This document shows positions 40,952 through 57,536 of a stretch of 64,000 nt of DNA, in pieces. The stretch lies in IMG/VR virus record IMGVR_UViG_3300024261_000007, positions 69,025 to 133,024 of that record, one strand, 5' to 3'. Made by a program: the position numbers and the translations under genes. Origin of the DNA: a virus. Numbering within the stretch: position 1 is the first letter of the stretch; every line of letters starts with the position of its first letter. The notes beneath the pieces are model-generated. The model was given only the letters and a program-made list of their open reading frames with translations, was not told where the DNA came from and ran no database searches.

Positions 40952-40991
40952 GTTATTAAAATTATTAAAATAAAATTAAAAATTAAATTAT

Positions 40992-41020: not shown

Positions 41021-41103
41021 ATGAAACATGATTGGCCAACAAAACAAACAAAAAATAAATATTGCCAATTAAAAATTAAACAATTAGGAAGGAAAATTTA
41101 ACT

Positions 41104-41904
41104 ATGGCTATTGATCTCGCAGCAATCCGAAAGAAACTTGGACAACTTAGTGGACAGAATTCTAAGAAAAACGTTATGTGGCGACCAGAGGAAGGTGCAG
41201 AAACAACTGTTCGACTTATGGCTTACCCCGATAATGACGGACAGCCTTTTAAGGAACTAATGTTCTATTATAACATTGGTACAAATCGTGGTCTTCTTTC
41301 ACCTTACCAATTTGGCAAACCGGATCCTATCCAAGAGCTTATTACAAAGCTTCGTGATGAAGGTTCTAAAGAGTCTTACGAGTTGGCAAAGAAATTATAT
41401 CCAAAGATGAGATGTTATGCACCAGTTGTTGTGCGTGGTGAAGAAGAAAAAGGTGTAAGACTTTGGGCATTTGGAAAAACTGTTTACCAGTCGCTTCTTA
41501 ATTACATGCTTGACGAAGACTATGGCGATATTACAGATCCTCTCGAAGGAAGAGATGTAAGAGTTAGTTGTCAAAAAAATCCTGGCCAGCAATGGGCAAC
41601 AACAGACGTAAGACCTCGAGGAAAAGACACAGCATTATCAGGAGATTCTGCAAAGTCAAAACAGTGGTTAGATAGCATTCCAGATGTCAATGACTTGTTT
41701 GAGCTTAAGTCTTACGAAGAGCTTGAAGGAATTATTAACGAGTGGTTAAATGGAGACGACGAAGATGATCAAAAAGAAACAACCCGAGGTGGCAGTAGCT
41801 TTAAGAACAATTCTACACAGTCAAAGAGTGATGATTCACCAGATGCTATTGCAGGTAAATATAGTTCTATTGATGACGCATTTGCTGATCTTGAAGGACT
41901 ATAA
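41104..41904 (+). CDS. Single-stranded DNA-binding protein, T4 gp32-like
   Basis: WRP..TVRLM, GVRLWAFGKTVY, DYGDITDPLEGRD, acidic tail IDDAFADLEGL. Confidence 0.8.
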   Translation: MAIDLAAIRKKLGQLSGQNSKKNVMWRPEEGAETTVRLMAYPDNDGQPFKELMFYYNIGTNRGLLSPYQFGKPDPIQELITKLRDEGSKESYELAKKLYPKMRCYAPVVVRGEEEKGVRLWAFGKTVYQSLLNYMLDEDYGDITDPLEGRDVRVSCQKNPGQQWATTDVRPRGKDTALSGDSAKSKQWLDSIPDVNDLFELKSYEELEGIINEWLNGDDEDDQKETTRGGSSFKNNSTQSKSDDSPDAIAGKYSSIDDAFADLEGL

Positions 41905-41914
41905 GGAGTAGACT

Positions 41915-43123: not shown

Positions 43124-43130
43124 TAACATT

Positions 43131-44090
43131 ATGAACGAGCCTGTCATTTACATTGACGGCTTAAATGTATTTATGAGACACTTTGCTGCCAATCCAGCTA
43201 AGTCATTAAATGGACAGCTGTGTGGTGGCATTTTTGGTATGTTAAGAAATATACAACATCTCTCTGAAAGATTTAAGCCACAAAAAATAATAGTTGTTTG
43301 GGAAGGTGGCGGTTCTTTTAGAAGAAGAGCTGTTGACCCAGATTATAAAAACAGGAGAAGACCTGTACGTTTAAATAGAAGTGAATATCATGATGACATT
43401 CCTGATACTACTAACAATAGAGACTGGCAACTTAAGACTCTTGTAAAGATTTTATATAAAACACCTGTTACACAAGTTTATGTAAATGATTGTGAAGCTG
43501 ATGATGTTATTTCTTATTTAACAAAAACAAAAAAAGTAATATTTCAAAAAATAATTGCTACATCTGACAAAGATTATTATCAGTTAATTGATGAACAAAC
43601 AAAAATCTGGTCACCTAATAAAAAAATATTGATTGATGAAAAATATGTATTAGAAAAGTGGGGAATTACTCCACAAAATTTTTGTACAGCAAGATGTTTC
43701 GCAGGAGATCAGAGTGACGGTATTAAAGGTGTCAAAGGAGCAGGCTTAAAAGTAATGCTTAAAAGATTTCCAGATTTAGGTGTGTGTAAATTTTTATCTC
43801 ATCATGATATAATAAATGAAGCCAAAGATAATATTCAAAACGGCAGCAATTTAAAGTTATTTGAAAATATTATTGCAGGACAAAACGATATTGATAAAAA
43901 CTGGAAGCTAATGTATTTAGATTCTGCGATGTTAAGTGCTGATCAAATCAAAAAAATAAACTTTCAAATAGAACAAAAAGAAGAAAAACTAAATAAATTT
44001 GAATTGCTTAAGTTACTAAATAAAAATGGTTTAAACGGATTTGATATTCACACGTTTTTATTAACAATTAAATCAACACTAAGGACATAA
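43131..44090 (+). CDS. 5'-3' exonuclease / flap endonuclease (Pol I N-terminal or T4 RNase H-like)
   Basis: YIDGLN, YKNRR, CEADDVI, TSDKDYYQL, GDQSDGIKGVKGAG. Confidence 0.9.
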   Translation: MNEPVIYIDGLNVFMRHFAANPAKSLNGQLCGGIFGMLRNIQHLSERFKPQKIIVVWEGGGSFRRRAVDPDYKNRRRPVRLNRSEYHDDIPDTTNNRDWQLKTLVKILYKTPVTQVYVNDCEADDVISYLTKTKKVIFQKIIATSDKDYYQLIDEQTKIWSPNKKILIDEKYVLEKWGITPQNFCTARCFAGDQSDGIKGVKGAGLKVMLKRFPDLGVCKFLSHHDIINEAKDNIQNGSNLKLFENIIAGQNDIDKNWKLMYLDSAMLSADQIKKINFQIEQKEEKLNKFELLKLLNKNGLNGFDIHTFLLTIKSTLRT

Positions 44091-44096
44091 AATTAA

Positions 44097-45473
44097 ATGA
44101 GTTTAAATACAAACTTTTCAAAATTTGGAAAGCCTTTTCAAGAAAAAGTTTTTCAATCAATGTTGTCAGATCAACTCTGGGCTGGACAAATGATCGAGGT
44201 TGTCAATCCTGAATACTTTGATCTTAAGTATTTGTCTTTTTTATGTGGAAAATATTTTTCATACTATAAGAAATACAAAACATTTCCAACACTTACAATT
44301 CTTATTACAATTATCAAAGAAGATTTAACTAACTCAAAAGATCACGTTTTGAGAGACCAAATTATTGAATATCTTCATCGTATGAAAACAAATCCAGACA
44401 TGGGTGATCTACAATATGTTAAAGATAAATCACTTGAATTTTGTAAAAGGCAAGCTTTTCGTGAAGCTTTAGAACAAAGTGTTGAATTAATCCAAACAGA
44501 GAAATATGAATCTGTTTTAAATATCATGAAAGAAGCAATCTCTGTAGGCATGCCAAACTCTTCAGGTCACAATTTCTTTGATGATATCGAAGCAAGATTT
44601 GTTCAAATCAACAGACAAGTCTGCCCTACTGGTTTAGATAGACTTGATGCGCAAGATATTTTAAGAGGTGGTTTAGGCAGAGGTGAACTTGGCGTTATTG
44701 CAGCTAATACAGGTGTAGGTAAATCACACTTCTTAGTTGCAATGGGATGTGCAGCTATGAGAGCTGGCAAAAATGTAATACACTATACATTCGAGCTATC
44801 AGAACATGATACTGGAAAAAGGTATGACTCTAATTTGTGTAACATTCCTTCAAATGAAATTATTGAACGTAAGAAAGAAGTCATTAATAAATATGAAGGA
44901 ATGGACTTAGGTAGACTTATTATTAAAGAATACCCAAGTGGTTCTGCTTCTGTTCTTACAATAAGAAATCATATTGAAAAACTAACACTTAAAGGATTTA
45001 AACCAAGTGTAGTTATTATTGACTACGCTGATGTTATGAAGTCTACGAGAGCTTATGACTCTTTAAGACATGAATTAAAGTTGATATACACAGAATTAAG
45101 AAATCTTGCAGGTGAACTAAACATTCCAGTCTGGACAGCTTCTCAAGCAAACAAAGAATCTTCAAAGGCAGACGTTGTAGGATTAGAAAATCTAGGCGAG
45201 TCATACGCTAAAGCACAAGTTGCTGATATTGTACTTTCAATTAGCAGAAAGCCTATGGAAAAGTCTGAAGGTACTGGACGAATTTTTGTTGCTAAGAACC
45301 GTGCCGGCCGTGATGGCTTATTATTTCCTATTAATATTGATACTGCAAAATCTAAGTTTGCAATTTTAGATGAAAGCTCGTTAACATTAAATGAAGCAAT
45401 ATCACAAGATAATAATTCTATGAAAGAAAAATTAAGAGAAAAGTGGAAAGAGGTAAATAAAAAAGATGATTAA
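44097..45473 (+). CDS. Replicative DNA helicase, DnaB / T4 gp41-like
   Basis: GLGRGELGVIAANTGVGKS, YTFELSE, IIDYAD, WTASQAN, VAKNRAG. Confidence 0.92.
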   Translation: MSLNTNFSKFGKPFQEKVFQSMLSDQLWAGQMIEVVNPEYFDLKYLSFLCGKYFSYYKKYKTFPTLTILITIIKEDLTNSKDHVLRDQIIEYLHRMKTNPDMGDLQYVKDKSLEFCKRQAFREALEQSVELIQTEKYESVLNIMKEAISVGMPNSSGHNFFDDIEARFVQINRQVCPTGLDRLDAQDILRGGLGRGELGVIAANTGVGKSHFLVAMGCAAMRAGKNVIHYTFELSEHDTGKRYDSNLCNIPSNEIIERKKEVINKYEGMDLGRLIIKEYPSGSASVLTIRNHIEKLTLKGFKPSVVIIDYADVMKSTRAYDSLRHELKLIYTELRNLAGELNIPVWTASQANKESSKADVVGLENLGESYAKAQVADIVLSISRKPMEKSEGTGRIFVAKNRAGRDGLLFPINIDTAKSKFAILDESSLTLNEAISQDNNSMKEKLREKWKEVNKKDD

Positions 45474-45939
45474 GATTTATTGCAATGAAAAGTTAGATGA
45501 AGCATTAGATGACAATGATGTTAAAGATTATGTTCCTGCTTATGGGGGCGAAAGTGCGGGATTAGACCTTTACAACTCAGGAGAAAATATTTCTGTGATG
45601 CCTTCATCTTCTGATCCTAAAGGTGTAATGATAAGCACGGGTCTTCATGTTTTTACGCCAAAAGGATACGTTTCTCTAATAAAAGAGCGAGGATCTATTA
45701 CAAAGACACCGCTAAAGTATAGAGCAGGAGTAGTTGATGAAGGATATACAGGAGAAATATTTGTTAATCTTGTAAACATTAGCAGTGAAGAGTATATTAT
45801 TAAAAAAGGGCAGAAACTTCCTGTGCAAATTATAGTTGTTAAATGTGATAATGAGTATTCTGAAATTGGAGAAAAAGAATACTTAACCCTATCCAAATTT
45901 TCTAAGAGAAGCACCGGAAAAGTAGGAAGTTCAGATTGA
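45466..45939 (+). CDS. dut: Trimeric dUTPase
   Basis: SAGLDL, ERGS, AGVVDEGYTGEI, KLPVQ, RSTGKVGSS. Confidence 0.85.
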   Translation: MIKIYCNEKLDEALDDNDVKDYVPAYGGESAGLDLYNSGENISVMPSSSDPKGVMISTGLHVFTPKGYVSLIKERGSITKTPLKYRAGVVDEGYTGEIFVNLVNISSEEYIIKKGQKLPVQIIVVKCDNEYSEIGEKEYLTLSKFSKRSTGKVGSSD

Positions 45940-45956
45940 CAGTAACAAGGAGGAAC

Positions 45957-48374
45957 ATGAAAGTTATAAAAAAAAATACAGTTAAACAGAAAACAATAGA
46001 ATATTTTGATAATGATGAATTAGCTGTAAACGTATGGATGTCAAAGTATGCGTTAAAAGATAAACGTGGCTGTTTTTTAGAGGAGACGCCTGATGATATG
46101 CATGTAAGGCTTGCAACAGAATTTGCAAGAATAGAGGACAAGTTCAAGACAAATGCAATGTCTAAAAAAGAGATTTATGATTACTTAAAAAACTTTAAAT
46201 ATATCGTCCCGCAAGGTTCACCAATGTCAGGAATTGGTAATGATTATATGAATATTTCATTATCAAACTGTGTTGTTGTAGAATCGCCAAAAGATACAAT
46301 ATCATCTATAATGAATAGTGGCAAAGATCTTGCAAATCTATTCAAGAGAAGATGTGGCGTAGGGCTAGACATAAGTGAATTACGACCTGAAGGTGCGTAT
46401 GTCAACAATTCAGCAATAACAACTTCTGGCGCTTGGAGTTTTGCTGATTATTTTAGTAATGTGTGCAGAATGATTGGTCAAAACGGACGTCGTGGTGCAC
46501 TTATGATATCTATGGATATTAGACATCCTGATATTGAAAAGTTTGTCGTTATGAAAAACGATTTAACAAAAGTGACTGGCGCAAATGTATCTGTTAAAAT
46601 AACAGATGAGTTTATGGAAGCTGTTGATAATGATAAAGACTTTAGACTGCATTTCCCAATCGGTTCAGAAAGCCCTGAATACGAAAAAGTCATTAAAGCT
46701 AAAGACTTATGGGATTTAATAGTTAACTCAGCAACGACAACTGCAGAGCCTGGTTTACTTATGTGGGACAATATAACAAAAATGTTACCTGCTGAGAGTT
46801 ACAAAGATGTAGGATTTAAAACTGTATGTACAAATCCATGTGCAGAGATACCTTTGTCTTCATATGATAGCTGTAGATTAATATCTATAAATCTTAAGCA
46901 TATGGTAGAAAACCCATTTACAGAAAATGCAATATTTGACTTTGAGAAACTTAAAGAAGTTTCTCGTGTAGCAATGAGATTATCTGACGACTTGGTAGAG
47001 TTAGAAATAGAAAAGTTAGAGAGCATTCTCAACGTATCAGATACTGACGATGAAAAAGAAATGTGGGAAAAACTTTTAGTTGCTTGTAAGAATGGTAGAA
47101 GAACTGGGTTAGGAACACATGGATTAGCTGATGTCTTGTCAAGATTAAACTTACCATATGATGATGAAAATGCAATAGAAATAACAGCAAATATTTATAG
47201 GACTTTAAAAGAATCAGCGTATGGTGAGAGTGTTTTGCTTTCAAAAGAAAGAGGATCATTTCCAGTCTATGACTTTGAAAAAGAAATAGATCATCCTTAT
47301 TTAAGTCAACTTCCAGATGAGATGTTAAAAGAAATGTCTGAGTATGGAAGAAGAAACATTTCAATATTAACTAATGCGCCAACAGGTAGTGTATCAATAC
47401 TATCACAGACTAGTTCCGGCTTAGAGCCTGTTTTTAGAAACTCTTATATACGAAGAAGAAAACTTGGTGACGATTCTAGTGAAAAAGTCGATTTTGTTGA
47501 TGATTTAGGTGATAAGTGGCATGAATTTGAAGTCTTTCATCATAATGCTAAAGAGTGGCGACAGTTAAACCCAGGAAAAGATCTGCCAGCATTTTTTACA
47601 GAAAGTGATCAGATCAATTGGGAAAAAAGAGTTGAGATACAATCAAAAATTCAACAACACATTGATCACGCAATAAGCTCAACTATTAATCTACCTTCAG
47701 ATACAACGTCAGAAACAGTAAGTAAAATATATCTTGAGTCTTGGAAAAAAGGTCTCAAAGGTGTAACTGTTTACGTTGATGGTTCTAGATCTGGTGTATT
47801 AGTTACAAGTAGTGAAGAGAAAGAGACGTTTCCTCAAACTCAAGCGCCAAAAAGACCCGAAACGTTGATTTGTGATATACACCATACAAAAGTTAGAGGA
47901 GAAAAATGGGTAATATTGATTGGGTTGTTAGAGAACAAGCCATATGAGGTCTTTGGTGGTAAAGCTTCTTTTGTTGAAATCCCTAAAAAGATTAGCAAAG
48001 CAACATTAGTTAAGAGGACATTTAAAACAAAAATAAGCAAATATGATCTTTGTTTTGGAGATCAAGATGATCCTACAATCATTAAAGACGTAGTTAAGGC
48101 GTTTAACAATCCAAACAACTTAGCTTTTGCAAGAATGATATCACTTAGTTTAAGACACGGATCAAAAGTCAAGTTTATGGTTGAGCAGTTGCAGAAAGAC
48201 AAAGATAGTGATATGTTTAGCTTTAACAAGTCTATTGCTAGAATTCTTAAGAACTATATCAAAGATGGCGAAGTTCCTACTGATAAGCAATGTGATGATT
48301 GTGGTGTAGAAGCTTTAGTATATCAAGACGGCTGTGTAATATGCAGTTCTTGCGGATATTCAAAATGTTCTTGA
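45957..48374 (+). CDS. nrdJ: Class II (adenosylcobalamin-dependent) ribonucleotide reductase
   Basis: AGGAGG before ATG 45957; SLSNC, RRGALM, TNPCAE, APTGS, KGVTVYVDGSR, C-terminal CDDCG..CSSCGYSKC; no adjacent nrdB. Confidence 0.88.
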   Translation: MKVIKKNTVKQKTIEYFDNDELAVNVWMSKYALKDKRGCFLEETPDDMHVRLATEFARIEDKFKTNAMSKKEIYDYLKNFKYIVPQGSPMSGIGNDYMNISLSNCVVVESPKDTISSIMNSGKDLANLFKRRCGVGLDISELRPEGAYVNNSAITTSGAWSFADYFSNVCRMIGQNGRRGALMISMDIRHPDIEKFVVMKNDLTKVTGANVSVKITDEFMEAVDNDKDFRLHFPIGSESPEYEKVIKAKDLWDLIVNSATTTAEPGLLMWDNITKMLPAESYKDVGFKTVCTNPCAEIPLSSYDSCRLISINLKHMVENPFTENAIFDFEKLKEVSRVAMRLSDDLVELEIEKLESILNVSDTDDEKEMWEKLLVACKNGRRTGLGTHGLADVLSRLNLPYDDENAIEITANIYRTLKESAYGESVLLSKERGSFPVYDFEKEIDHPYLSQLPDEMLKEMSEYGRRNISILTNAPTGSVSILSQTSSGLEPVFRNSYIRRRKLGDDSSEKVDFVDDLGDKWHEFEVFHHNAKEWRQLNPGKDLPAFFTESDQINWEKRVEIQSKIQQHIDHAISSTINLPSDTTSETVSKIYLESWKKGLKGVTVYVDGSRSGVLVTSSEEKETFPQTQAPKRPETLICDIHHTKVRGEKWVILIGLLENKPYEVFGGKASFVEIPKKISKATLVKRTFKTKISKYDLCFGDQDDPTIIKDVVKAFNNPNNLAFARMISLSLRHGSKVKFMVEQLQKDKDSDMFSFNKSIARILKNYIKDGEVPTDKQCDDCGVEALVYQDGCVICSSCGYSKCS

Positions 48375-48407
48375 TATATTAAAACTAGAAGTCAGGGTTT
48401 TAAAATC

Positions 48408-48436
48408 CTGTAAAATTTATAAATCTATGATATAAT
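48408..48436 (+). promoter_or_regulatory. Early/middle-type promoter (CTGTAA-17-TATAAT)
   Basis: Same motif and 17-nt spacer. Confidence 0.65.
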
Positions 48437-48465
48437 AATAAAAACACAAAACAAGGAAGTATTTA

Positions 48466-49071
48466 ATGATTAATTTTTTAACTGAGATTTCACCGCTAAT
48501 TAAAGAGATAGAGCTACATCATGATCCAATCATCATTACAGTAAATGAGTTTAATGAAGAAACAGCTAATGAATTTGCTACTTTAATGAGTGCAGCACAA
48601 AATACAGGACAAAAAGTTGTTCCTGTAGTTATTGATTCGTTTGGGGGACAAGCTTACGCTTTATTGTCAATGATATCATCAATTAAATCTTCAAAAATAC
48701 CGGTTGCAACAATAGTAAAAGGAAAAGCTATGTCTTGCGGAGCACTATTGTCTTCTTTTGGGGAAGATGGTTTAAGATTTATGGATAAAGATGCGACAAT
48801 GATGATACATGACGTTTCGTCGATGGCATTTGGAAAAGTAGAAGAGTTAAAGTCTGATGCAAGAGAAGCTGAACGATTGAATAAAAAAGTTTTTACTATG
48901 ATGTCAAGGAATTGTGGTAAACCTGATGACTATTTTGTAAACTTAATTCATGATAAAGGACACGCTGACTGGTATCTAGATGCGGTCGAAGCTAAAGAAC
49001 ACAATATCACACAACATCTTAGAGTGCCTAGTTTAAAAGGAAAAGTAACTGTATCTTTTGATCTAGAATAG
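48466..49071 (+). CDS. clpP: ClpP-like serine protease
   Basis: IDSFGG, GKAMSCG (catalytic Ser), MMIHD (His), DWYLDAVEAKE. Confidence 0.85.
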   Translation: MINFLTEISPLIKEIELHHDPIIITVNEFNEETANEFATLMSAAQNTGQKVVPVVIDSFGGQAYALLSMISSIKSSKIPVATIVKGKAMSCGALLSSFGEDGLRFMDKDATMMIHDVSSMAFGKVEELKSDAREAERLNKKVFTMMSRNCGKPDDYFVNLIHDKGHADWYLDAVEAKEHNITQHLRVPSLKGKVTVSFDLE

Positions 49072-49179
49072 AGCTTTTTGTTTAATTGAAATCTTTAAAG
49101 CACTTCAAAACGCTAATGAAGAAGTCAAAGGAATTGTCAATACATACATAAGTAAGAAAAGTTAAAAAAGGAATTTATA

Positions 49180-49974
49180 ATGGAACAATTTTCAACTTTA
49201 AATAAAGATAAAGAATATGTTGTATCTTTACAACAAGAAGTAGGCGTTGTAGCTGATGGTGTATACGGTCCTAACACACATAGAGCAGTTAGACAATACT
49301 ACGGTATGCCTATTATGATGCATATGGGTAAAGTAGTGCCTATTGATTCTCCGCTGGAGATTGATTGGTCAGCACCTTTATATGAGCTTGATGATGGAAC
49401 AAAAAACTGGTATAAAAGAAAAGCAGACCCATCAACAATATGTGTTCACTGGGGAGGATTAAATACAAGGCACTGTTATAACGTATTTAATCTTGCTAGG
49501 GGTCGACACGTTTCGTCTCACTTCTTAATTGGGCGAAATCATAAGACAGGAGAATATGAAATCTTACAGTGTTTAGATACAGGACTAGCTGCGTATCATG
49601 CTGGAAAGTTTAATAAATATTCTATTGGAATTGATATTTGTATGCATCCAGATGACAAGTATTGGGAAAAAACTAAAGGTTGGTACCCAGATGCTGAACT
49701 TCAAGTATGCAAAATACCTGATAGAAGAGTTAGAGGTCGTAAACTTGTAATGATTGGTGATGATTTTGCAGATGTTTGCAGAGAGTTTTTACAGTCGTTA
49801 AGAGAATCAACAGGTTTGCTTGATAAGCCTATATGCGAAACATTAGATGTAATGTCTGTTAAAGAAGCATCACAATATAGCATTGTTGGTCACCATAACA
49901 TTTCAGCAAAAAAATGGGATGTTATACCTTGGGCAGAAAAACTATATTACGGGCTCGATGAAGAAATTGTTTAA
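49180..49974 (+). CDS. N-acetylmuramoyl-L-alanine amidase (Amidase_2) with N-terminal peptidoglycan-binding segment; endolysin candidate
   Basis: LQ..VGVVADGVYGPNT; ICVHW, SSHFLI, AYHAG..NKYSIGIDI, IVGHH..K.D. Confidence 0.8.
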   Translation: MEQFSTLNKDKEYVVSLQQEVGVVADGVYGPNTHRAVRQYYGMPIMMHMGKVVPIDSPLEIDWSAPLYELDDGTKNWYKRKADPSTICVHWGGLNTRHCYNVFNLARGRHVSSHFLIGRNHKTGEYEILQCLDTGLAAYHAGKFNKYSIGIDICMHPDDKYWEKTKGWYPDAELQVCKIPDRRVRGRKLVMIGDDFADVCREFLQSLRESTGLLDKPICETLDVMSVKEASQYSIVGHHNISAKKWDVIPWAEKLYYGLDEEIV

Positions 49975-49978
49975 TTGT

Positions 49979-50007
49979 GTGTAAATTATAATTTTTGTTT
50001 TTATAAT
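49979..50007 (+). promoter_or_regulatory. Early/middle-type promoter (GTGTAA-17-TATAAT)
   Basis: GTGTAA 49979-49984, TATAAT 50002-50007. Confidence 0.75.
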
Positions 50008-50030: not shown

Positions 50031-50732
50031 ATGAACAAACAAAATTTTTTATATGATGATAAAATTGGACAAATTGAGTTAGTTCAAAGTATGGGTAAAG
50101 ATATAACAGTTGTAAACTCAGCAAGAGTTTCTTTCGGAGTGCATAAACAAGAAATGGATGACAAAGACAAAAAGCTTGTAAACTATCTTGTTGCTCATAA
50201 GCATACTTCTACTTTAGAACATAATATTGCAACTTTTAGAATAAAAGTTCCTCTCTTCGTCAGATCACAACATCATAGACACAGGACGTGGTCTTATAAC
50301 GAAATTTCAAGAAGATATACAGATTCTGTTTTACAATTTTATATACCTAAGGCTTATAGAACGCAGCATAAGTCAAACAGACAAGCTTCTAATATAAGTG
50401 AGTTAATAAATCCTCAAATGGGTTGTTATCCTATTGACTTAGAAAGCAGGCTTTGCAATGATGCTGTTGAGCATCATGTTCGTCTTTCTTTAGACTTATA
50501 TCATGATATGACGAATAAAGGCGTTGCAAGAGAGCAAGCACGCATGATTCTACCTCAAAATCTTTACACAGAATATTATGCAACTGCAAATTTAAATAAT
50601 ATTCTTAAGTTTATTGATTTAAGAACACATGAAGGTGCACAATGGGAAATTCAAAAACTTGCTGAAGGTATGCTAAGAATAATTTCAGATTTGTGGCCAG
50701 AAACAGTCAATTCTTATAAAAGAAATAAATAA
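50031..50732 (+). CDS. thyX: FAD-dependent thymidylate synthase
   Basis: NSARVS, HTSTLEH, RHRTWSYNEISRRY, REQARMILP, AQWEI. Confidence 0.95.
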   Translation: MNKQNFLYDDKIGQIELVQSMGKDITVVNSARVSFGVHKQEMDDKDKKLVNYLVAHKHTSTLEHNIATFRIKVPLFVRSQHHRHRTWSYNEISRRYTDSVLQFYIPKAYRTQHKSNRQASNISELINPQMGCYPIDLESRLCNDAVEHHVRLSLDLYHDMTNKGVAREQARMILPQNLYTEYYATANLNNILKFIDLRTHEGAQWEIQKLAEGMLRIISDLWPETVNSYKRNK

Positions 50733-51181: not shown

Positions 51182-51442
51182 ATGACACTAGACGACAATG
51201 CAATTAGCCACATTGCAAAAATTATTCAGATGGCCATCATTACTGGCACTGACATTGTAGATCATTTAAGAATGATGAAACTTGATACTAATCCTAATGA
51301 TTCACTAAAATTGATTTTAAATGATGAATACAAAGAAATTCATGATAATTCTATAAGTGTAATGGTTAAAAATTCGTTATCAAGAAGAGACGAAGAGTTA
51401 GGTTTAAACCAAGCACAAGAGGTAAATATTGACAATGAATAA
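51182..51442 (+). CDS. Hypothetical protein
   Basis: AAGGA RBS; 86 aa. Confidence 0.65.
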   Translation: MTLDDNAISHIAKIIQMAIITGTDIVDHLRMMKLDTNPNDSLKLILNDEYKEIHDNSISVMVKNSLSRRDEELGLNQAQEVNIDNE

Positions 51443-51812
51443 AGATATGTTAAAAGATGTTTTTGAAAAAAGACAAACTTTTATGGAAATGATTAAAGAA
51501 AAGTTTCCAGACTCATATCCAGAGTGGCCAGTAAATCTTTCAGAAAAGCAAGCTCAGACTACATGCAGAGAAACAGCTCTTAAAGGCGTCGAAGAAATGT
51601 TTGAGGCATTACAGCATCTTAAAAATTGGAAACCACATCGAGAAACAGAAATGCCTGATATTGATAGAGAAGAATTTTTAGAGGAAATTGTTGATGCTTT
51701 TAATTACTTTTTTTCTTTAATGATTTTAATTGGAGTAGATGTTGAAGAGTTTTATGACGCTTTCAATAAAAAAGACAGAATAATCAGAGAAAGACTTACA
51801 CAAGGATATTAG
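51435..51812 (+). CDS. All-alpha NTP pyrophosphatase (dimeric dUTPase / MazG / T4 gp56-like)
   Basis: GVEEMFEAL..NWKPH and EFLEEIVDAFNYF acidic metal-binding helices; NxKxxxxxxR..GY C-terminus. Confidence 0.8.
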   Translation: MNKDMLKDVFEKRQTFMEMIKEKFPDSYPEWPVNLSEKQAQTTCRETALKGVEEMFEALQHLKNWKPHRETEMPDIDREEFLEEIVDAFNYFFSLMILIGVDVEEFYDAFNKKDRIIRERLTQGY

Positions 51813-51813
51813 T

Positions 51814-52461
51814 GTGTACGAAATCGACGATGAATTGTTGATCTATAAAGATAGTTTTTACAGATCATCAGAATTTTCTTTACACTTGTGGAATGTTATT
51901 GAAAGCAAAATTCTTTATATACTTGGAATATTTGATACAGGAATTGTAACAGTATACTTTGACAATGAGAACATATCAATATCAGCAAGTTCAGAATTTT
52001 TTATTGTTGTAAATGAAAGCTATCGCTTTTTTTTGAACAACTGTCTATGCAATATGCCAGACTTTACAGCGTGTATTTTAATAACCTTTGAAAAAAAACA
52101 AGAGTTTAAATTAAATTACGACAAATGCTTTTTTTATTATGAAGAAGATAATAGTGAAGATGAAGGCGATATAGAAGCTCAAGTAGACATATCAGGAGAC
52201 ATTTCTTCTTTCACTGAGATCAAAGCAAGTATTCTTTCCAAAATAACAAAAGAACTCCAGTACTTAGTACATAAAAACGCGCTTCAATATAAAATTGAAA
52301 AGTCAAAAATTACCAAATTAGACGTAGAATACGAATATTATGTTTTACTTTCTAAAGTTTATAATAAAGGCTTGAAAGAAGTTATGATTAAAAAAAACGT
52401 AAACTCTGTATTACAAAAGTATATTTTAGAGATACAAGAAAGAACAAGAAATGAAAAATAA
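51814..52461 (+). CDS. Hypothetical protein
   Basis: 215 aa ORF tightly packed in operon. Confidence 0.6.
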   Translation: MYEIDDELLIYKDSFYRSSEFSLHLWNVIESKILYILGIFDTGIVTVYFDNENISISASSEFFIVVNESYRFFLNNCLCNMPDFTACILITFEKKQEFKLNYDKCFFYYEEDNSEDEGDIEAQVDISGDISSFTEIKASILSKITKELQYLVHKNALQYKIEKSKITKLDVEYEYYVLLSKVYNKGLKEVMIKKNVNSVLQKYILEIQERTRNEK

Positions 52462-52852
52462 AAACAGGTATTATTTACAAGAAGAATATCATCTTGATAT
52501 AGAAGAAGAAAAAGAAGAAATTGAAAATCTGACTACAAGTGAAGTACAGCAAGAAGCACTTAGACTACTACGGACATTTCTTAAGAAACCTGTTAAATGG
52601 AACAACATGTTTTCACTTATAGAAAAAGTAAGAAGAGAAATGCAGTCTGGAAGAGATAACTATGACAGCTCTGCAAATGATACGCAACTTTCTCTTATCA
52701 CACCTTTGCTTGTTTTTTTTAGCTTAACAATCAAGACTTCAATGCAAATGCAACCTATAGATAGCGAAATAATTATTAATATACTGGCAGATAATTTTAA
52801 AAGTCAAGAACATTTAGATGAGCTAGGAATAATGATTGATGAAATCTACTGA
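52451..52852 (+). CDS. Hypothetical protein
   Basis: 133 aa ORF overlapping neighbours. Confidence 0.6.
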   Translation: MKNKNRYYLQEEYHLDIEEEKEEIENLTTSEVQQEALRLLRTFLKKPVKWNNMFSLIEKVRREMQSGRDNYDSSANDTQLSLITPLLVFFSLTIKTSMQMQPIDSEIIINILADNFKSQEHLDELGIMIDEIY

Positions 52853-53744
52853 AAATACTTTGAAAGATTTTTTTGTAAAACAACATATCTTTTCTAAAAA
52901 GTTTTACAATTCAGAAATATTAAGCGAAAAAGAAAAAGAAGAGCTTCTTAAAACTTTATCTTTAGCAATGCACAACGAAATATCAGAAATTTTATCTTCG
53001 ACAAATTTTAAAGTTTTTGACAAAACGGACTATTCTGTTGATAAAAACAAGCTCCTTTACAACTCTGTTGATGTCTTTAGGTACATGATAGCAATAATGA
53101 ATCTTTATAATATTACAGATCACGAATTTACTTCTGCTTTTGACGAAAGAGACAAACACTTAGATATTATTAACGAAATAAAAAGTCCTAACAGGAATCA
53201 AAAAGTAGTCGTCGTTGACATAGATGACGTTTTATGCACTTTTAGAAGCCATTTTAATAACTACTTATACAAAAAGTATGATATATTTGTTGACCCAGAA
53301 AATACCTCTTATTACTCTTCAAAAGAAGTTAAAAGTGTAGGATTAAGTCCCGAAAGAGTTTTTGAAACTTTTATTGAAGAAGATGGATTTCTAGACATAC
53401 CTGTAGTACCTGAAATGGTTGATCTCTTACACGACATGAAAAGACAAGGTGTATACGTACAACTACTTACTTCGAGGCCAGAACATAATTTGAAATGCAA
53501 GTATCAAACTTTTGTTTGGCTTGAAAACAACAATATTCCTTTTGATAACATTAACTTTGCAGCAGAAAAGTATATATGGCTCGCTAAGAAAGACTTTTAT
53601 ATAAATAACAACTTGTTATCAGCAATTGATGATAGTCCAAAACATGCAATGGAATACGCAACACATGGTATTAAAGTTTTAGTTCCTCGAATGCCTTACA
53701 ATAAAAACTTAGATCACGCAAATATAACTTACTTTAGTTTATAG
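52839..53744 (+). CDS. Fusion: degenerate all-alpha NTP pyrophosphatase domain + HAD 5'(3')-deoxyribonucleotidase-like domain
   Basis: N-term MHNEISEIL..NFK..LLYNSVDVFRY; C-term HAD motifs VVDIDDVL, LLTSRP, K, AIDDSPKH. Confidence 0.75.
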   Translation: MKSTENTLKDFFVKQHIFSKKFYNSEILSEKEKEELLKTLSLAMHNEISEILSSTNFKVFDKTDYSVDKNKLLYNSVDVFRYMIAIMNLYNITDHEFTSAFDERDKHLDIINEIKSPNRNQKVVVVDIDDVLCTFRSHFNNYLYKKYDIFVDPENTSYYSSKEVKSVGLSPERVFETFIEEDGFLDIPVVPEMVDLLHDMKRQGVYVQLLTSRPEHNLKCKYQTFVWLENNNIPFDNINFAAEKYIWLAKKDFYINNNLLSAIDDSPKHAMEYATHGIKVLVPRMPYNKNLDHANITYFSL

Positions 53745-53766
53745 GTTTAATTTAAAATATAATTGT

Positions 53767-53795
53767 GTGTAAATTATACAACATCATTGTATAAT
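53767..53795 (+). promoter_or_regulatory. Early/middle-type promoter (GTGTAA-17-TATAAT)
   Basis: GTGTAA 53767-53772, TATAAT 53790-53795. Confidence 0.75.
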
Positions 53796-53838
53796 ATAAA
53801 AGTAATTAACAAAACAATATTGATAAATGGAGTAATAA

Positions 53839-54810
53839 ATGCCTATTAATAATAATCTTGAACCTGTTACTTTGCCTATGGATCTTAAATTCGGGCAAGA
53901 GCCAGTTACAAATTATATTAACAACTTAGAATCACTTAACATTGAGTTAATTGATGGTCCGACAAGAGAACAAGCACAAAAAATTGCATGGCACATGACA
54001 AAAGCAACTTGGGCTGATTCACCTAACGAGACCTCTTTTGAAAATGCTTCTGTTAAAGAAGCTTCCCAAAATCTTCAAGACGTCTTAAACTTTAGAGCTT
54101 TGCCTACGCCAATGGAGTGTTTAGGTTTTACGTTTAAGATTAGTGGGATTGATACGCAAACTGTAACTCATCTAATCAGACATCGAGCTGGATCATTTGC
54201 AGCACAATGTACAGGTGACAGAGATTTACGTAATGATAACATTCTTGTACCAGAGTCTGTAGAAAATTCTGACTTTCATGATAGATTTATTAATGTTGCG
54301 ATGCAAGCAAAGCAACTTTATTCTGATATGGTTGATTCTCGTGTTGTGTCGCTAATGGATGCACGAGTTATTTTGCCTAAGTCACTTGAGACTTTTTACA
54401 TTGCAAGATTTAATCTTAAAGATTTAATTGGTTTTATTAAGCAAAGACAAGACGTGCAGATTCAACCAGAAGTTGATAACATTATGGCAACTCGAATTGC
54501 AAGAATTGTTTGTGATGCTATTCCAGAAGTTGCATCATGTCTTGACTTTAGCAAACCAGACATGCATTATGTAAGAACATTTAGAGTCGAGCAAGCAGAT
54601 GGTTCTTATACTTCTAAGGGTACTAACTTATATTATCCTGAGCCTAAAAACGATATGTTTGACTTTAACGCACAAGATGCTATTTATCCATGTCGTCGTG
54701 AAGAGATTAATGGCAATAAGTCCGGTGAAGAAAAAATCTTTACGAGAATGTGGAATGATGATGTAAATGCTGTAAATGAAATTAAGCAGCAACTCGATAA
54801 TGAATTTTAA
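53839..54810 (+). CDS. Divergent ThyX-fold flavoprotein (motif Ser replaced by Cys)
   Basis: FTFKISGI..THLIRHRAGSFAAQCTGDR and DARVILP..ET ThyX-like motifs. Confidence 0.8.
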   Translation: MPINNNLEPVTLPMDLKFGQEPVTNYINNLESLNIELIDGPTREQAQKIAWHMTKATWADSPNETSFENASVKEASQNLQDVLNFRALPTPMECLGFTFKISGIDTQTVTHLIRHRAGSFAAQCTGDRDLRNDNILVPESVENSDFHDRFINVAMQAKQLYSDMVDSRVVSLMDARVILPKSLETFYIARFNLKDLIGFIKQRQDVQIQPEVDNIMATRIARIVCDAIPEVASCLDFSKPDMHYVRTFRVEQADGSYTSKGTNLYYPEPKNDMFDFNAQDAIYPCRREEINGNKSGEEKIFTRMWNDDVNAVNEIKQQLDNEF

Positions 54811-54886
54811 AACAGAGTTACAGATAGAAAACTTTGTTGCAAAACAATTAAAAACATAAAAAAATAATTACATAAGGAACATTTTA

Positions 54887-55336
54887 ATGAAAAAGATTTA
54901 TTTAGCTAGCGGTTGGTTTAATCCTACACAAGATGCAGAACTTACACAACTTGAAAAGATTTTTGACGAGCGCGCTGACTCTTTTGAACTAGCTTCACCT
55001 CGTCGTATCTTTGTTTGTCCTCCTAATGCACCAAAAAGTGTGCAAGATGAAACATTTACAGGAAATTTACATCATATTCAAACAGCAGATTTTTTACTTG
55101 TTAATACACGTGACAAGGATATCGGGACTATTTGGGAAACTGGTTACGCATATGCATTTGATAAGCCTATTATTTATTTTTGCGCAGGCTTGCCTAAAGG
55201 AGCTAAGTTTAATCTTATGTTAGCAAGAAGTGGTATTAAAGTTTGTACGTCTTTTAAACAGTTAGAAGATTATCTGGACAGAGCAATTAAGTCTGGTGAA
55301 CTTCCAAACGAGCCTTACGCAGATGCAATTGAATAA
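54887..55336 (+). CDS. Nucleoside 2-deoxyribosyltransferase / nucleotide N-glycosidase family protein
   Basis: KIYLASGWF, SPR, ADFLL, DIGTIWETGYAYAFDKPI, NLML. Confidence 0.85.
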   Translation: MKKIYLASGWFNPTQDAELTQLEKIFDERADSFELASPRRIFVCPPNAPKSVQDETFTGNLHHIQTADFLLVNTRDKDIGTIWETGYAYAFDKPIIYFCAGLPKGAKFNLMLARSGIKVCTSFKQLEDYLDRAIKSGELPNEPYADAIE

Positions 55337-55607
55337 AGATACTTTAAAGTTTTGGTCTTTTAAAGATACTAAAGACTATAAGAGCGCAAAGTATAAACAT
55401 ATATGTAATTCAAACGTATATCGAAGATTTACGTTTGTTAAGTCTTTTTTGTTAAAAGTAGAGTTGACAAACAATAAGTTTTCTTACGTAACACCTTTAT
55501 GCTTTATGTCTTACGGGTCTTTTCCTGACGGTAACTACGAAGGAATTGATGATAGCGGCCAGAAAATATTTTTTAACGAAGAACAAATTAATGAGGTATA
55601 CAGGTGA
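55323..55607 (+). CDS. Hypothetical protein
   Basis: ORF overlapping upstream stop; start uncertain. Confidence 0.5.
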   Translation: MQLNKDTLKFWSFKDTKDYKSAKYKHICNSNVYRRFTFVKSFLLKVELTNNKFSYVTPLCFMSYGSFPDGNYEGIDDSGQKIFFNEEQINEVYR

Positions 55608-55816
55608 ATTTTAAATACAAAAAAATTTTTAAAACATATGCTTTCCATAATATAGTTGCTCATCCTCTAATGCAAGTTTTAAATTGGGTAGGCAAAGAAA
55701 AGTGGGCTAATGAAGTTCATGATAAAACATTACCTAAAAAAGGTGTTCATGAAAAAGAAACAGCAAACACAGGAAATGATGTGCCTGAAGCAAACAGAAC
55801 AATCTTAAAAGATTAA
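55604..55816 (+). CDS. Small hypothetical protein
   Basis: GAGG RBS, GTG start; FHNIVAHPLM..VHDKTLP. Confidence 0.6.
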   Translation: MNFKYKKIFKTYAFHNIVAHPLMQVLNWVGKEKWANEVHDKTLPKKGVHEKETANTGNDVPEANRTILKD

Positions 55817-55817
55817 A

Positions 55818-56018
55818 ATGATCAATAAAATACCTGAATCTTTTAGGATTGGGAGTTGTATAAAATACAGCTACTTGTATTTAAACGATACAGATAGTAT
55901 AGGTGTAATTCTTAAAATAAAAGAAGATGCAAACTTTACTTGCATGGTTACGATTTTAACAGAACTCTCTAAAATAGAAATTATTCCTTATAATGTTATG
56001 GAATACAATATATTATGA
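55818..56018 (+). CDS. Small hypothetical protein (SH3/KOW-like)
   Basis: FRIGSCIKY...IGVILKI pattern. Confidence 0.5.
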   Translation: MINKIPESFRIGSCIKYSYLYLNDTDSIGVILKIKEDANFTCMVTILTELSKIEIIPYNVMEYNIL

Positions 56019-56216
56019 ATATTTTCATTCTCGATAAATTTTCTAAAAAAGTCACGGCGTATCACTGTGACAATCACGTAGTGAAAATGATGTTAAAATC
56101 TGACTAAATAAAATACACAGCTACATTTACTTTGGAACAAAAACAAAACGCTCAAATACTTTAAAAGAGTAAGATTTGTAAAATGCAAGTATTCAAAAAA
56201 GCTTAAATGGTTTTAA
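56015..56216 (+). pseudogene. Remnant of pyrimidine-dimer DNA glycosylase / DenV-like gene
   Basis: ATG 56015 reads MNIFILDKFSKKVTAYHCDNHVVKMMLKSD-stop(56107)-IKYTA, matching family N-terminus MNIFxLD..YHCDKHVVKMILESAQLLxTA; possible C-terminal KWF-stop at 56216. Confidence 0.7.
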
Positions 56217-56221
56217 AGTGC

Positions 56222-56253
56222 ATGTAAATTACATTTAAAAAATATATTATAAT
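56222..56253 (+). promoter_or_regulatory. Early/middle-type promoter variant (ATGTAA-17-TATTAT)
   Basis: TGTAAAT core with AT-rich -10 at matching spacing. Confidence 0.5.
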
Positions 56254-56279
56254 TTATAATCTCATATTAAGGATGATCT

Positions 56280-56549
56280 ATGCAAAAAACATACAATTCA
56301 TATAAAAATGGCTTACAAGTTTCTGACTTAGTAACTTTTATGCACAATGTATTTAAAAACCAATTTTCAGGGCCAAGAACAGCTTTGGTTATAGATAGAA
56401 GTTTCTTGTTTGACAATAAAACAAAGTATGGAATTAAAAAATTTTTTAGTTATAAAATGCTTGACTTAAATAGCAATAAAATATATGTCATAAAAACTCG
56501 TGACATAAAAGTAGTTAAAGTTTTTAAATCAATGAAAGAAGAAAAATAA
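56280..56549 (+). CDS. Hypothetical protein
   Basis: AGGA RBS; 89 aa. Confidence 0.55.
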   Translation: MQKTYNSYKNGLQVSDLVTFMHNVFKNQFSGPRTALVIDRSFLFDNKTKYGIKKFFSYKMLDLNSNKIYVIKTRDIKVVKVFKSMKEEK

Positions 56550-57536
56550 ATGAGAATAGGAATTACTGGAGAAAAAGGCTTTATTGCAACCAACTTAGCA
56601 CAAAAAATTATTAAACAAGGACATGAATTTGTATCACTTGACAATGCTGACTTTGCAAAAAGAGTTATGGATTACACACTATCAGGTGAAGTTTGTGTAT
56701 ATAAAAATAGTGTCAAAAGATGGACCAGCTTATTTGAGTTGTTAGGCTTAGACTGTATTGTTCATAATGCAGCAGTTGTTGGGACTGATGTTGTTGCTTT
56801 AAACCCAAGACATGCTATTAATACAAACGTGTTAGGCACACAGACAATCGTTGAGGCAGCAAATAATTGTAAAATGTTAATTGTATATACTGGTACAACA
56901 GTAATTTATGATACATACAAATATCAAGAAACTGACATTTTAGAAAACAGCGAAATATTTCCAAGAACAAACTATGCAGTGCAAAAGTACGCTGGTGAAA
57001 TGATTGTAAGAAATAATGCAAAAGAATGGCTTGTTACAAGACCACTATTTGCCTACGGTGGTGTAGGTGATATGAATTCTTTAATTGCTAAGTCTTTGTT
57101 TGGAGTTAAAAACAGCATAGAAAGTATTGATATGTTTTTAAATCCAGAAAAAATTAAAGACTACATGCATGTTGAAGACTTTTGTGAAAACGTCATGAGA
57201 CTTGTAGATGATGGAGTTAGAAACGAGGATTTTAATATTACAGCAGAAAATCCTCATACAACTTTGGAAATTATTAGTTTAATTGAAGAAGTTTCTGAAA
57301 GCTCTTTAGAAGGAATAATAAAGTGGCACCCAGAAACTGACTATCTTGGAAATCATAGACTTTCTAACCAAAAGTTTTTAGACTTTATGAAGACTTCAGC
57401 TACAAAAACTTTAAAAGAAGGTATTAAAGAATCTTGGAATACTATTAAAAATGATAAAAGCAATTACAATCCTTTAAAATATTTAGATCAAGCAAAAGAA
57501 AACAAAGTTGATCTTAAAAAATTCTTTCCAAAATGA
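56550..57536 (+). CDS. NAD-dependent nucleotide-sugar epimerase/dehydratase (extended SDR)
   Basis: GITGEKGFIA Rossmann motif, HNAA, TNVLGT, YAVQK catalytic YxxxK, DYMHVED. Confidence 0.88.
   Translation: MRIGITGEKGFIATNLAQKIIKQGHEFVSLDNADFAKRVMDYTLSGEVCVYKNSVKRWTSLFELLGLDCIVHNAAVVGTDVVALNPRHAINTNVLGTQTIVEAANNCKMLIVYTGTTVIYDTYKYQETDILENSEIFPRTNYAVQKYAGEMIVRNNAKEWLVTRPLFAYGGVGDMNSLIAKSLFGVKNSIESIDMFLNPEKIKDYMHVEDFCENVMRLVDDGVRNEDFNITAENPHTTLEIISLIEEVSESSLEGIIKWHPETDYLGNHRLSNQKFLDFMKTSATKTLKEGIKESWNTIKNDKSNYNPLKYLDQAKENKVDLKKFFPK

Follow-up and report, generated by a model that had tools for sequence, protein, structure and literature searches.

A divergent ThyX-fold protein linked to a nucleoside deoxyribosyltransferase-like protein in uncultured phages: a candidate route to a non-canonical pyrimidine

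Organization of the locus

The stretch of DNA analysed here (the window; 64,000 nucleotides) covers the final 64 kb of a virus record of 133,024 bases in IMG/VR (IMGVR_UViG_3300024261_000007; CheckV completeness 53%), which stems from an uncultured giant phage of marine origin, and has a GC content of ~31%. On its forward strand lies a gene module centred on ThyX2 (53839..54810, 323 aa; Pfam Thy1, E-value 6.4e-20), a protein with the fold of the flavin-dependent thymidylate synthase ThyX that bears a rebuilt substrate loop as well as N- and C-terminal extensions. The core partner of ThyX2 is a protein of the nucleoside 2-deoxyribosyltransferase (NDT) family, encoded immediately 3' (54887..55336; PF05014 Nuc_deoxyrib_tr, 1.7e-12). 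On the 5' side are an all-alpha MazG-like (deoxy)nucleoside triphosphate ((d)NTP) pyrophosphohydrolase (51429..51812, with an ATG at 51435) and a protein in which a degenerate MazG/dUTPase_2-like domain is fused to a HAD 5'-deoxynucleotidase of the NT5C type (52836..53744; dUTPase_2, 2.5e-5; NT5C, 1.7e-8). Further 3' lies an extended short-chain dehydrogenase/reductase (SDR) of the NDP-sugar epimerase/dehydratase/reductase family (56550..57536; Epimerase, 4.5e-26; RmlD_sub_bind, 1.1e-17). A canonical ThyX, termed here ThyX1 (50031..50732; Thy1, 4.2e-50, 170.6 bits), carries the motif RHR-x7-S-x-R-Y, and a trimeric-type dUTPase (45466..45939; Pfam dUTPase, 3.4e-10) provides the context of dUMP supply.

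An earlier reading of the letters alone (the sequence-only reading) had seen in these genes, beside ThyX1 and the dUTPase as suppliers of dTMP, a pathway that removes a canonical nucleotide and makes a modified, possibly sugar-bearing, pyrimidine. All seven genes are present, with starts identical to those it gave or at most 6 bases away, and Pfam, PHROG and fold matches agree with the cluster and with every family assignment. We tentatively suggest that the module constitutes a nucleotide-pool route to a non-canonical C5-substituted pyrimidine, in which the product of ThyX2 would be something other than dTMP.

Conserved linkage of ThyX2 and the NDT-family protein

Gene neighbourhoods were compared in a jumbo-lineage set of 80 loci from a scan of IMG/VR (ThyX2 identity 57-89%) and in a second set of 80 loci from phages of ~40 kb, which was seeded with a different ThyX2 subgroup and consists of contigs of mostly ~10-80 kb with a ThyX2 33-42% identical to the window copy. 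The control comprises 80 canonical phage ThyX loci, the best 80 of 539 and all of one clade, with a mean length of 17.1 kb that exceeds that of the test sets. Identical query sets were used throughout (tblastn, E ≤ 1e-3), and the NDT was counted within 10 kb of ThyX2. Since the loci within each set are mutually related, the counts out of 80 are not independent events, and they sample the contexts of narrower ThyX2 subgroups, with the family groups A3, A4 and A6 lying outside the sample.

The NDT accompanies ThyX2 in 78/80 jumbo-lineage and 78/80 ~40-kb loci, compared with 0/80 control loci. An HD hydrolase is present in 79/80 of the ~40-kb loci and in none of the jumbo-lineage loci, whereas the MazG-like protein (67/80 jumbo-lineage, 21/80 ~40-kb) and the SDR (63/80 and 9/80, respectively) occur in both sets. 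None of these three is found in the control (0/80 each), and thus the linkage is specific to ThyX2. The genes therefore do co-occur in genomes other than their own, as the sequence-only reading supposed. In the two jumbo-lineage loci that lack the NDT, the contig ends less than 1 kb past ThyX2, and all loci lacking MazG have less than 1.8 kb of upstream flank. ThyX1 and the HAD fusion are found in 56/80 and 45/80 jumbo-lineage loci, respectively. In a distant group of this lineage (L067-L083) the surroundings formed by ribonucleotide reductase, ClpP and ThyX1 are gone, and the MazG-like protein, the HAD fusion, ThyX2 and the NDT are still together with a small conserved open reading frame (ORF) of 86 aa. 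The window copy of this ORF (51182..51442, +) is without a Pfam or NCBIfam match; in jumbo-lineage loci, including the distant group, it is always located 5' of the MazG-like gene. In one of these loci (L070:7083-7892; distant jumbo relative G003), a gene for an Fpg/Nei-type DNA glycosylase lies directly 5' of the small-ORF/MazG module, which is unusual in a phage and may be of relevance to modified bases.

Within the ~40-kb set, the NDT lies either 5' or 3' of ThyX2, usually at a distance of at most 2 kb, and the gene order differs between lineages; with the window NDT as the lone query, it is recovered in 74/80 loci. The HD protein forms one cluster in 77/80 loci and matches Pfam YfbR-like (5.6e-17) and PHROG 7076, 'dATP triphosphohydrolase' (5.7e-21). 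A MazG-like protein, again of one cluster, is encoded directly 3' of ThyX2 in 13 loci, and six loci have an extended SDR gene, its product sharing 44-48% identity with the window SDR, that abuts or overlaps the ThyX2 stop codon. Other neighbours are a DUF6378 protein (36 loci), PolA (36 loci) and dCMP deaminase (15 loci), as well as an SNF2 helicase, a PD-(D/E)XK nuclease and a ligase. The DUF6378 protein (~96 aa) is encoded immediately 5' of ThyX2 in its 36/80 loci, and its PHROG label, 'phosphofructokinase', looks wrong. The combination MazG-NDT-HD-ThyX2 is also present on three contigs of metagenome-assembled genomes (Clostridia, Ruminococcus, Bacteroidales). The conserved core is thus smaller than the cluster first described and consists of ThyX2 and the NDT, usually with a (d)NTP or (d)NMP phosphohydrolase.

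Gene content of whole records

Canonical and divergent Thy1 proteins are found together in 6/6 jumbo records, namely the record of the window and five further ones, which bears out the coexistence noted in the sequence-only reading. These records include the complete 239,550-bp genome G001, which has terminal repeats, and another in which the two Thy1 genes lie 78 kb apart. Among the 11 records surveyed, dCMP deaminase is present in eight, and in three ~40-kb records (G007, G008 and G009) it is located within ~1.1 kb of ThyX2. Thymidine kinase is encoded by the jumbo records G001-G004 and by the cultured Geobacillus phage GR1; in the ~40-kb records it is unmatched in 4/5 and reaches a weak 18.6 bits in the fifth. 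At 16-18 kb past ThyX2, G001 encodes thymidine kinase along with an AAA_28 P-loop protein and a dCMP deaminase, and the counterpart of this region would fall beyond the end of the window's own record. We also note that in G001 (34000-50000) a DUF559/ROS-MucR-like ORF interrupts the Pol III alpha gene and that the thymidine-kinase cluster that follows encodes an Fe/Mn superoxide-dismutase-like protein.

The complete genome G001 keeps MazG, ThyX2 and the NDT and is without matches to Epimerase, NT5C, YfbR-like HD, GT1, GT1_4 and GT2. We therefore class the SDR, the HAD fusion and the glycosyltransferases as accessory genes, and a sugar-bearing product, as envisaged by the sequence-only reading, does not hold as a general property. 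The SDR is also absent from G002, NT5C is matched in 3/6 whole jumbo records, and the YfbR-like HD protein is found in 0/6. The idea that the HAD domain is a non-homologous replacement of the HD protein holds in part: the jumbo records are devoid of the HD protein, yet half of them, including G001, also lack NT5C.

ThyX2 retains the ThyX fold with a rebuilt substrate loop

ThyX2 scores 72.2 bits against Pfam Thy1 (gathering cut-off 24.8), compared with 171 bits for ThyX1, and its 51.2 bits against the NCBIfam thyX equivalog TIGR02170 fall under the cut-off of 87.9. An AlphaFold2 (AF2) model built on 51 diverse homologues has a mean predicted local distance difference test score (pLDDT) of 95.4, and all PDB matches listed by Foldseek for this model are ThyX or PolB, with target TM-scores of ~0.65-0.78. 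Relative to canonical ThyX, the protein carries additional segments of ~45 aa at the N-terminus and ~80 aa at the C-terminus. The RHR motif, which plays a role in FAD binding, is present in the window copy, and its histidine varies across the wider family. Arg114 is invariant in the family, and Arg116, Arg176 and Arg203 are at least 90% conserved; Arg114/Arg116, Arg176 and Arg203 correspond to the RHR, DAR and LR motifs of canonical ThyX, respectively.

The differences are located in the remainder of the active site. The HxSxxEH motif reads LPTxxE, and a profile alignment to Mycobacterium tuberculosis ThyX places Cys, Gly and Asp of ThyX2 at Ser105, Arg107 and Tyr108, which are the equivalents of Ser88, Arg90 and Tyr91 of Thermotoga maritima ThyX. 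In place of these three residues, the family has a conserved loop of the form AQ-x-x-[GA]-D-[RK]. For the canonical enzymes, a 2025 study (PMC11940539) describes Ser88 and Tyr91 as 'strictly conserved' and 'critical for activity' and Arg90 as 'another conserved residue'. Thus, in line with the divergence that the sequence-only reading had noted for this protein, the predicted catalytic loop of ThyX2 is not that of an ordinary thymidylate synthase. The cysteine of the window copy turns out not to be a conserved feature: among 81 family members of the second locus set, the Ser88 position is Val in 39, Cys in 30, Thr in 10, Ser in one and Ala in one, while the Asp-Arg pair that follows this variable position is conserved.

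The family is large. An exhaustive HMMER search yields 690 clusters at 50% identity with E ≤ 1e-3, 145 with E ≤ 1e-10 and 40 with E ≤ 1e-30, many of them of 290-350 aa and aligning over both the N- and C-terminal extensions. A search with ThyX2 gives 1582 candidates, of which 1077 reach E ≤ 0.001; identities of the best 120 are 85-95%, and relatives as close as these abound in data from ENA, JGI, Tara and Logan. In a quick maximum-likelihood tree, 51 ThyX2-family members share a branch with one row labelled canonical by its motif (Shimodaira-Hasegawa-like approximate likelihood ratio test (SH-aLRT), 98), the remaining 12 canonical rows, made up of 11 library sequences plus the window ThyX1, fall outside it, and the window ThyX2 belongs to a 42-row clade (SH-aLRT 99). 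Three family members (P0150, P0254 and P0131) carry mobile or fused parts: an endonuclease domain of the HNH type, an intein and, in P0131, a domain at the N-terminus whose GT2 match (22.1 bits) stays under the Pfam cut-off of 23.3. Relative to the window copies, the ratios of non-synonymous to synonymous substitution rates (dN/dS) are ~0.08 for ThyX2, ~0.10 for the NDT, 0.12 for MazG, 0.15 for the SDR and 0.17 for ThyX1, which are rough values because dS is near saturation. By this measure, ThyX2 and the NDT are the genes under the tightest constraint, and ThyX2 is more constrained than ThyX1.

The NDT-family protein, the phosphohydrolases and the SDR

The NDT-family protein scores 48 bits against Pfam Nuc_deoxyrib_tr (cut-off 28.8), and Tyr5, Asp78, Glu84, Asn109 and the C-terminal Glu149 are invariant among 21 sequences. 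In the NDT of Lactobacillus, a catalytic glutamate acts as nucleophile together with Tyr, Asp and Asn (NLM) residues. The sequence-only reading had likened the protein to the hydrolases DNPH1 and MilB. This likeness is weakened, as the best PDB match is the N-deoxyribosyltransferase 6evs (8.6e-9, full length), DNPH1 entries reach E-values of 0.12-0.95 and MilB is absent among the matches up to E = 1. On these matches, the protein leans towards a true nucleoside deoxyribosyltransferase and away from the hydrolase DNPH1.

This bears on the possibility that the module makes a free modified pyrimidine base or nucleoside, for example for use against host nucleotide metabolism or for defence. In the nucleoside-antibiotic pathways of MilA/MilB and BcmA/BcmB, a C5-modifying enzyme is paired with an NDT-fold N-glycosidase, and the logic of MilA/MilB is mirrored here in that an enzyme acting at pyrimidine C5 is strictly paired with an NDT fold. 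In addition, the ThyX paralogue PolB, which is among the fold matches of ThyX2, is described as working in the synthesis of the nucleoside antibiotic polyoxin (PMC5954106). By analogy, ThyX2 and the NDT could thus serve such a product. We nevertheless regard this as improbable, since the module is embedded in a replication block that also encodes DNA polymerase, helicase, nuclease and ligase, the sequence of the NDT resembles transferases more than it does DNPH1, and no downstream antibiotic-type genes are seen.

The MazG-like protein remains below the Pfam cut-offs (PRA-PH, 18.5 versus 21.3 bits; dUTPase_2, 16.9 versus 22.9 bits) and is recognized by PHROG 12184, 'nucleotide pyrophosphohydrolase' (phrog_12184, 2.9e-16); its EExxE...ExxD motif is at least 90% conserved across the query and 52 distinct homologues. 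For the fusion protein, the HAD domain scores 35 bits against NT5C (cut-off 24.8), and its motifs (DxDxV, T/S, K and DD) are all conserved in the query and 35 distinct homologues. In the same alignment, the acid motif of the N-terminal domain is degenerate and poorly conserved. The description of the protein as a dead pyrophosphatase fused to a HAD nucleotidase therefore stands for its HAD part, and the loss of activity of the N-terminal domain is plausible from the sequence.

The SDR scores 92.2 bits against Pfam Epimerase, and the motifs GxxGxxG and YxxxK are visible in its translation. Its best PDB matches are dTDP-glucose 4,6-dehydratases and UDP-glucose 4-epimerases, and the Thr-Asp-Glu triad of the dehydratases was not seen by eye. 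As in the sequence-only reading, no glycosyltransferase or kinase is found among the scanned proteins of the window, a scan that left out some small ORFs. The search for glycosyltransferases beyond the window, which that reading had called for, covered the families GT1, GT1_4 and GT2: one GT1/GT1_4 match (G000:C1:4251-4559, in a gene at ~3573-4805) lies outside the window, in that half of the record where the structural genes are, and the complete G001 has no match to any of the three. GT1-type genes number 0-3 per record in relatives.

In the version closest to the sequence-only reading, the module would replace cytosine in the manner of phage T4, with the MazG-like protein as a dCTPase, ThyX2 (hydroxy)methylating dCMP and a sugar being added later with the help of the SDR. 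The MazG-like all-alpha pyrophosphatase is indeed conserved beside ThyX2, the SDR is linked in both sets of loci (63/80 and 9/80), a glycosyltransferase is encoded three genes 5' of ThyX2 in GR1, and there is the weak GT2-ThyX2 fusion P0131. Moreover, Gly and Asp followed by Arg replace Arg90/Tyr91 in a loop that contains active-site residues according to PMC11940539. Such an acidic loop residue could suit the amino group of cytosine, by analogy with the dCMP hydroxymethylases of the ThyA family. Even so, we consider replacement of cytosine unlikely. A dCMP deaminase near ThyX2 in small phages would drain dCMP, the complete G001 has no SDR, GT1, GT1_4 or GT2, and the universal NDT is left unexplained, because dCMP can be modified directly. 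A link between the module and glycosyltransferases was rejected, as homologues of the GR1 enzyme occur in only two of the loci compared, GR1 itself and its relative L153, the GT2 domain of P0131 is sub-threshold and G001 lacks all three families. The analogy to T4 drawn in the sequence-only reading is thus a loose one, with dCMP deaminase as a frequent neighbour in small phages pointing to dUMP over dCMP.

Other features of the window

The block of replication and nucleotide genes around the module comprises a PolA-like fragment, a gp32-like protein, RecA, the dUTPase, ribonucleotide reductase and a Pol III alpha gene truncated by the end of the record, and the first 69 kb of the record contain mostly large ORFs of structural appearance. 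Between the MazG-like gene and the fusion lie two variable ORFs on the forward strand. The first (51814..52461, 215 aa) is weak or absent in many relatives and has AAA_6 as its best match (E = 0.035, far below the cut-off), and the second (52451..52852, 133 aa) is present in a minority of relatives, with DUF87 as its best match (E = 0.066, below the cut-off). An ORF of 89 aa (56280..56549, +) directly 5' of the SDR co-varies with it in relatives and has no Pfam or PHROG match.

A promoter-like motif, TGTAAATTAYA-N8-16-TATAAT, is found upstream of ThyX1 (49980..50007), of ThyX2 (53768..53795) and of the 89-aa ORF and SDR (56223..56253). These three matches, all on the forward strand, compare with 0 expected, the pattern having been derived from two of the three; the copy upstream of ThyX1 was not used in its derivation. 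The putative early-type promoters that the sequence-only reading placed at 53767 and 56222 thus share a motif, but neither appears in the list of a generic sigma-70 scan, which shows no enrichment (48 sites found versus 42.3 expected) and omits the sites at 53768 and 56223. A generic terminator scan of the window likewise shows no enrichment. The promoter-like motif shared by ThyX1, ThyX2 and the SDR operon counts in favour of the preferred reading set out below.

A candidate pool-stage route to a modified pyrimidine

According to our preferred reading, phosphohydrolases would strip canonical dNTPs down to dNMPs or deoxynucleosides, thereby both lowering the competing pool and supplying substrate. 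Here, this step would fall to the MazG-like pyrophosphatase and the MazG-like/HAD fusion, and in small phages to the HD hydrolase of the DatZ/YfbR-like type. ThyX2 would attach a one-carbon or other substituent at C5 of a pyrimidine deoxynucleotide and omit the last reduction, which yields methyl; its substrate would most likely be dUMP, giving 5-hydroxymethyl-dUMP or a related product. The NDT could shift deoxyribose between bases, for instance from thymidine or deoxycytidine to uracil, and in this way redirect deoxyribose into the new pathway. ThyX1 would continue to make dTMP, such that thymine replacement in the jumbo phage would be partial, in the manner of SP-15 and phiW-14 (PMC5977210), and the SDR, together with glycosyltransferases where present, would provide lineage-specific tailoring. 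We lean towards a product that derives from dUMP and takes the place of part of the thymine, given that dCMP deaminase is a neighbour, that ThyX1 is kept in the jumbo lineage and that SP-15 and phiW-14 offer a precedent of two synthase paralogues.

Several observations weigh against this reading. In the ~40-kb records, ThyX2 is the lone Thy1 match in 5/5 cases (four of them at least 96% complete), and ThyA (PF00303) is absent from 11/11 records, that of the window included; ThyX2 could therefore simply be the thymidylate synthase of these phages. GR1, too, has a single Thy1 match and no canonical ThyX, and its annotation is without a second thymidylate synthase. ThyX2 keeps the RHR motif and the equivalents of the two substrate arginines, Arg147 and Arg174, which would allow a ThyX-type methylation by a variant mechanism. 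A cysteine acting as a new nucleophile throughout the family was considered and rejected, the Ser88 position being Val more often than Cys. The gene content of G001, which is without the HAD, the HD protein, the SDR and three glycosyltransferase families, indicates that the 'exclusion' and 'tailoring' steps are not universal. Orthology of ThyX2 with SP-15 gp130 or the YerA41 protein is unsupported (hhalign probability 5.0% and 4.4%, respectively), no relationship being detectable apart from the shared fold, so that only analogy connects ThyX2 with the hypermodification measured in those phages. Finally, the lineage has been assembled from very many metagenomes, which would argue against a bulky modification of the YerA41/Carin-5 type that blocks library preparation. 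A look for nanopore runs containing the window sequence listed none.

Several of these observations lend themselves to the view that ThyX2 is a genuine, if divergent, flavin-dependent thymidylate synthase and that the module is a salvage or pool-rebalancing unit of AT-rich phages. Phosphohydrolases would then yield deoxynucleosides, the NDT would transfer deoxyribose to uracil or thymine, kinases would re-phosphorylate the nucleosides and ThyX2 would methylate dUMP. This would fit the low GC content of the window and of GR1 (32%, compared with 52% for its host; PMC10969951), the resemblance of the NDT to true nucleoside transferases, the proximity of dCMP deaminase to ThyX2 in three small-phage records, the thymidine kinases of G001-G004 and GR1 and the ordinary behaviour of the lineage in sequencing and assembly. 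It fits less well with the replacement of Ser88, Arg90 and Tyr91, and the retention of ThyX1 in all six jumbo records alongside a more tightly constrained ThyX2 is hard to explain if the two are redundant. Moreover, salvage logic would be expected to apply equally to canonical ThyX, which is without linkage to NDT, HD or MazG in the control loci, and thymidine kinase is scarcely matched in the ~40-kb records. We regard ordinary thymidine supply as the main alternative, though less likely than the preferred reading.

A more far-reaching variant of the preferred reading, a modified pyrimidine made at the level of the nucleotide pool, would give the NDT a part in building the side chain itself: deoxyribose from released deoxynucleosides or dNMPs would be transferred to C5, or to the C5 substituent, of a ThyX-activated pyrimidine, with the SDR, where present, reducing the product. 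Unlikely as we judge this to be, it would amount to a sugar-derived thymine hypermodification that requires neither an NDP-sugar nor a glycosyltransferase, could provide a source for the five-carbon, 5'-phosphorylated dihydroxypentyl chain of the SP-15 type, and could account for the joint occurrence of NDTs and ThyX-derived enzymes in the two families.

We found no description of the ThyX2 family or of a ThyX-NDT linkage in the literature searched, supplementary tables and most subscription papers being outside that search. To our knowledge, pool-stage base replacement in phages is established only for ThyA-fold enzymes (T4, SPO1, phiW-14 and XP12) and for PurZ, and a ThyX-fold counterpart has been put forward once, as a hypothesis, for SP-15 gp130. 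ThyX2 belongs to a large family, highly abundant in metagenomes from the ocean, whose linkage to a deoxyribosyltransferase is specific. If a modified pyrimidine is made, non-canonical DNA would occur in a considerable fraction of the uncultured phages of marine, freshwater and gut habitats, with a bearing on evasion of restriction and CRISPR, on sequencing bias in viromes and on nanopore base-calling; ThyX2 would then be a flavin enzyme with new chemistry and a second fold for a known job. If it is merely a thymidylate synthase, it would be a ThyX able to work without residues thought to be essential.

Comparison with known systems

Canonical ThyX, or flavin-dependent thymidylate synthase (FDTS; EC 2.1.1.148), as represented by T. 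maritima TM0449 and M. tuberculosis ThyX, resembles ThyX2 in its fold, Thy1 match, RHR motif and the arginine motifs DAR and QR. It is distinguished by its Ser88/Arg90/Tyr91 loop and HxSxxEH motif, the lack of the extensions and the lack of linkage to an NDT. In phage T4, hydroxymethylcytosine is produced by the gp56 dCTPase, the gp42 dCMP hydroxymethylase, the gp1 kinase and glucosyltransferases. T4 thus shares with the module an all-alpha pyrophosphatase beside a C5-modifying enzyme and modification at the stage of the nucleotide pool, whereas the fold of the key enzyme is another, an NDT counterpart is missing and the evidence for the module leans towards dUMP rather than dCMP.

The logic of the module is shared with SPO1/phi-e and phiW-14, in which a ThyA-fold dUMP hydroxymethylase, a dTTP/dUTP pyrophosphatase and a dTMP nucleotidase lead to hydroxymethyluracil or to partial replacement of thymine. 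As proposed for the module, the modified dNMP is the product of an enzyme resembling thymidylate synthase, while phosphohydrolases clear the canonical nucleotides and a dCMP deaminase supplies dUMP; the fold is that of ThyA in these phages and that of ThyX in the window, and we know of no NDT in their pathways.

The nearest cultured relative is Geobacillus phage GR1 (OK896991), the only strong full-length match to ThyX2 among 50,697 phage records (41.8% identity, 98% coverage, 2e-76) and again the best by E-value when other family members serve as queries. Its genes at ~23.9-29.7 kb share with the window ThyX2, an NDT and a nearby Pol III alpha-type polymerase, and both genomes are low in GC. 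GR1 encodes two NDTs, with 37% identity between its NDT and that of the window, and its HD hydrolase, 37-39% identical to the HD cluster of the ~40-kb phages, takes the place of the MazG-like and HAD proteins; it is, in addition, a siphovirus of a Gram-positive thermophile. Besides the glycosyltransferase and thymidine kinase mentioned above, it carries genes for a nitroreductase, an amidoligase and a gamma-glutamylcyclotransferase, and also for a NUDIX protein, a guanylate kinase and a ThiF-like adenylyltransferase. Some of the accessory gene types of GR1 are also described in thymidine-hypermodification clusters (PMC8989533).

Heavily modified thymine bearing a glycosylated long linker, a hypermodification of the dihydroxypentyl-uracil type, is reported as confirmed experimentally, by mass spectrometry, in the DNA of SP-15, YerA41 and Carin-5 (PMC13697223, PMC12686479). 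Each of these phages encodes a weak Thy1-like ORF (387-413 aa), an NDT and a YfbR-like HD protein, and in Carin-5 the ThyX-like gene is adjoined by a 179-aa ORF that looked MazG-like by eye, an assignment dropped because Pfam gives no match. Their HD gene lies tens of kb away, unlike in the ThyX2 loci of ~40-kb phages, and the large blocks of sugar-modification genes described for phages of this type (PMC12686479) contrast with G001, which has no GT1, GT1_4 or GT2. SP-15 itself has two Thy1-type genes, for which gp9 has been hypothesized to be the thymidylate synthase and gp130 a hydroxymethyluridylate synthase (Kropinski et al. 2018, PMC5977210). The SP-15 protein gp130 is without the RHR motif; a double NDT and a classical SDR are encoded directly 5' of gp130, with the HD gene 27 kb off. 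SP-15 is therefore comparable to the jumbo lineage of the window in that a canonical Thy1 (gp9) is kept alongside a divergent one, and in that an SDR adjoins the divergent copy.

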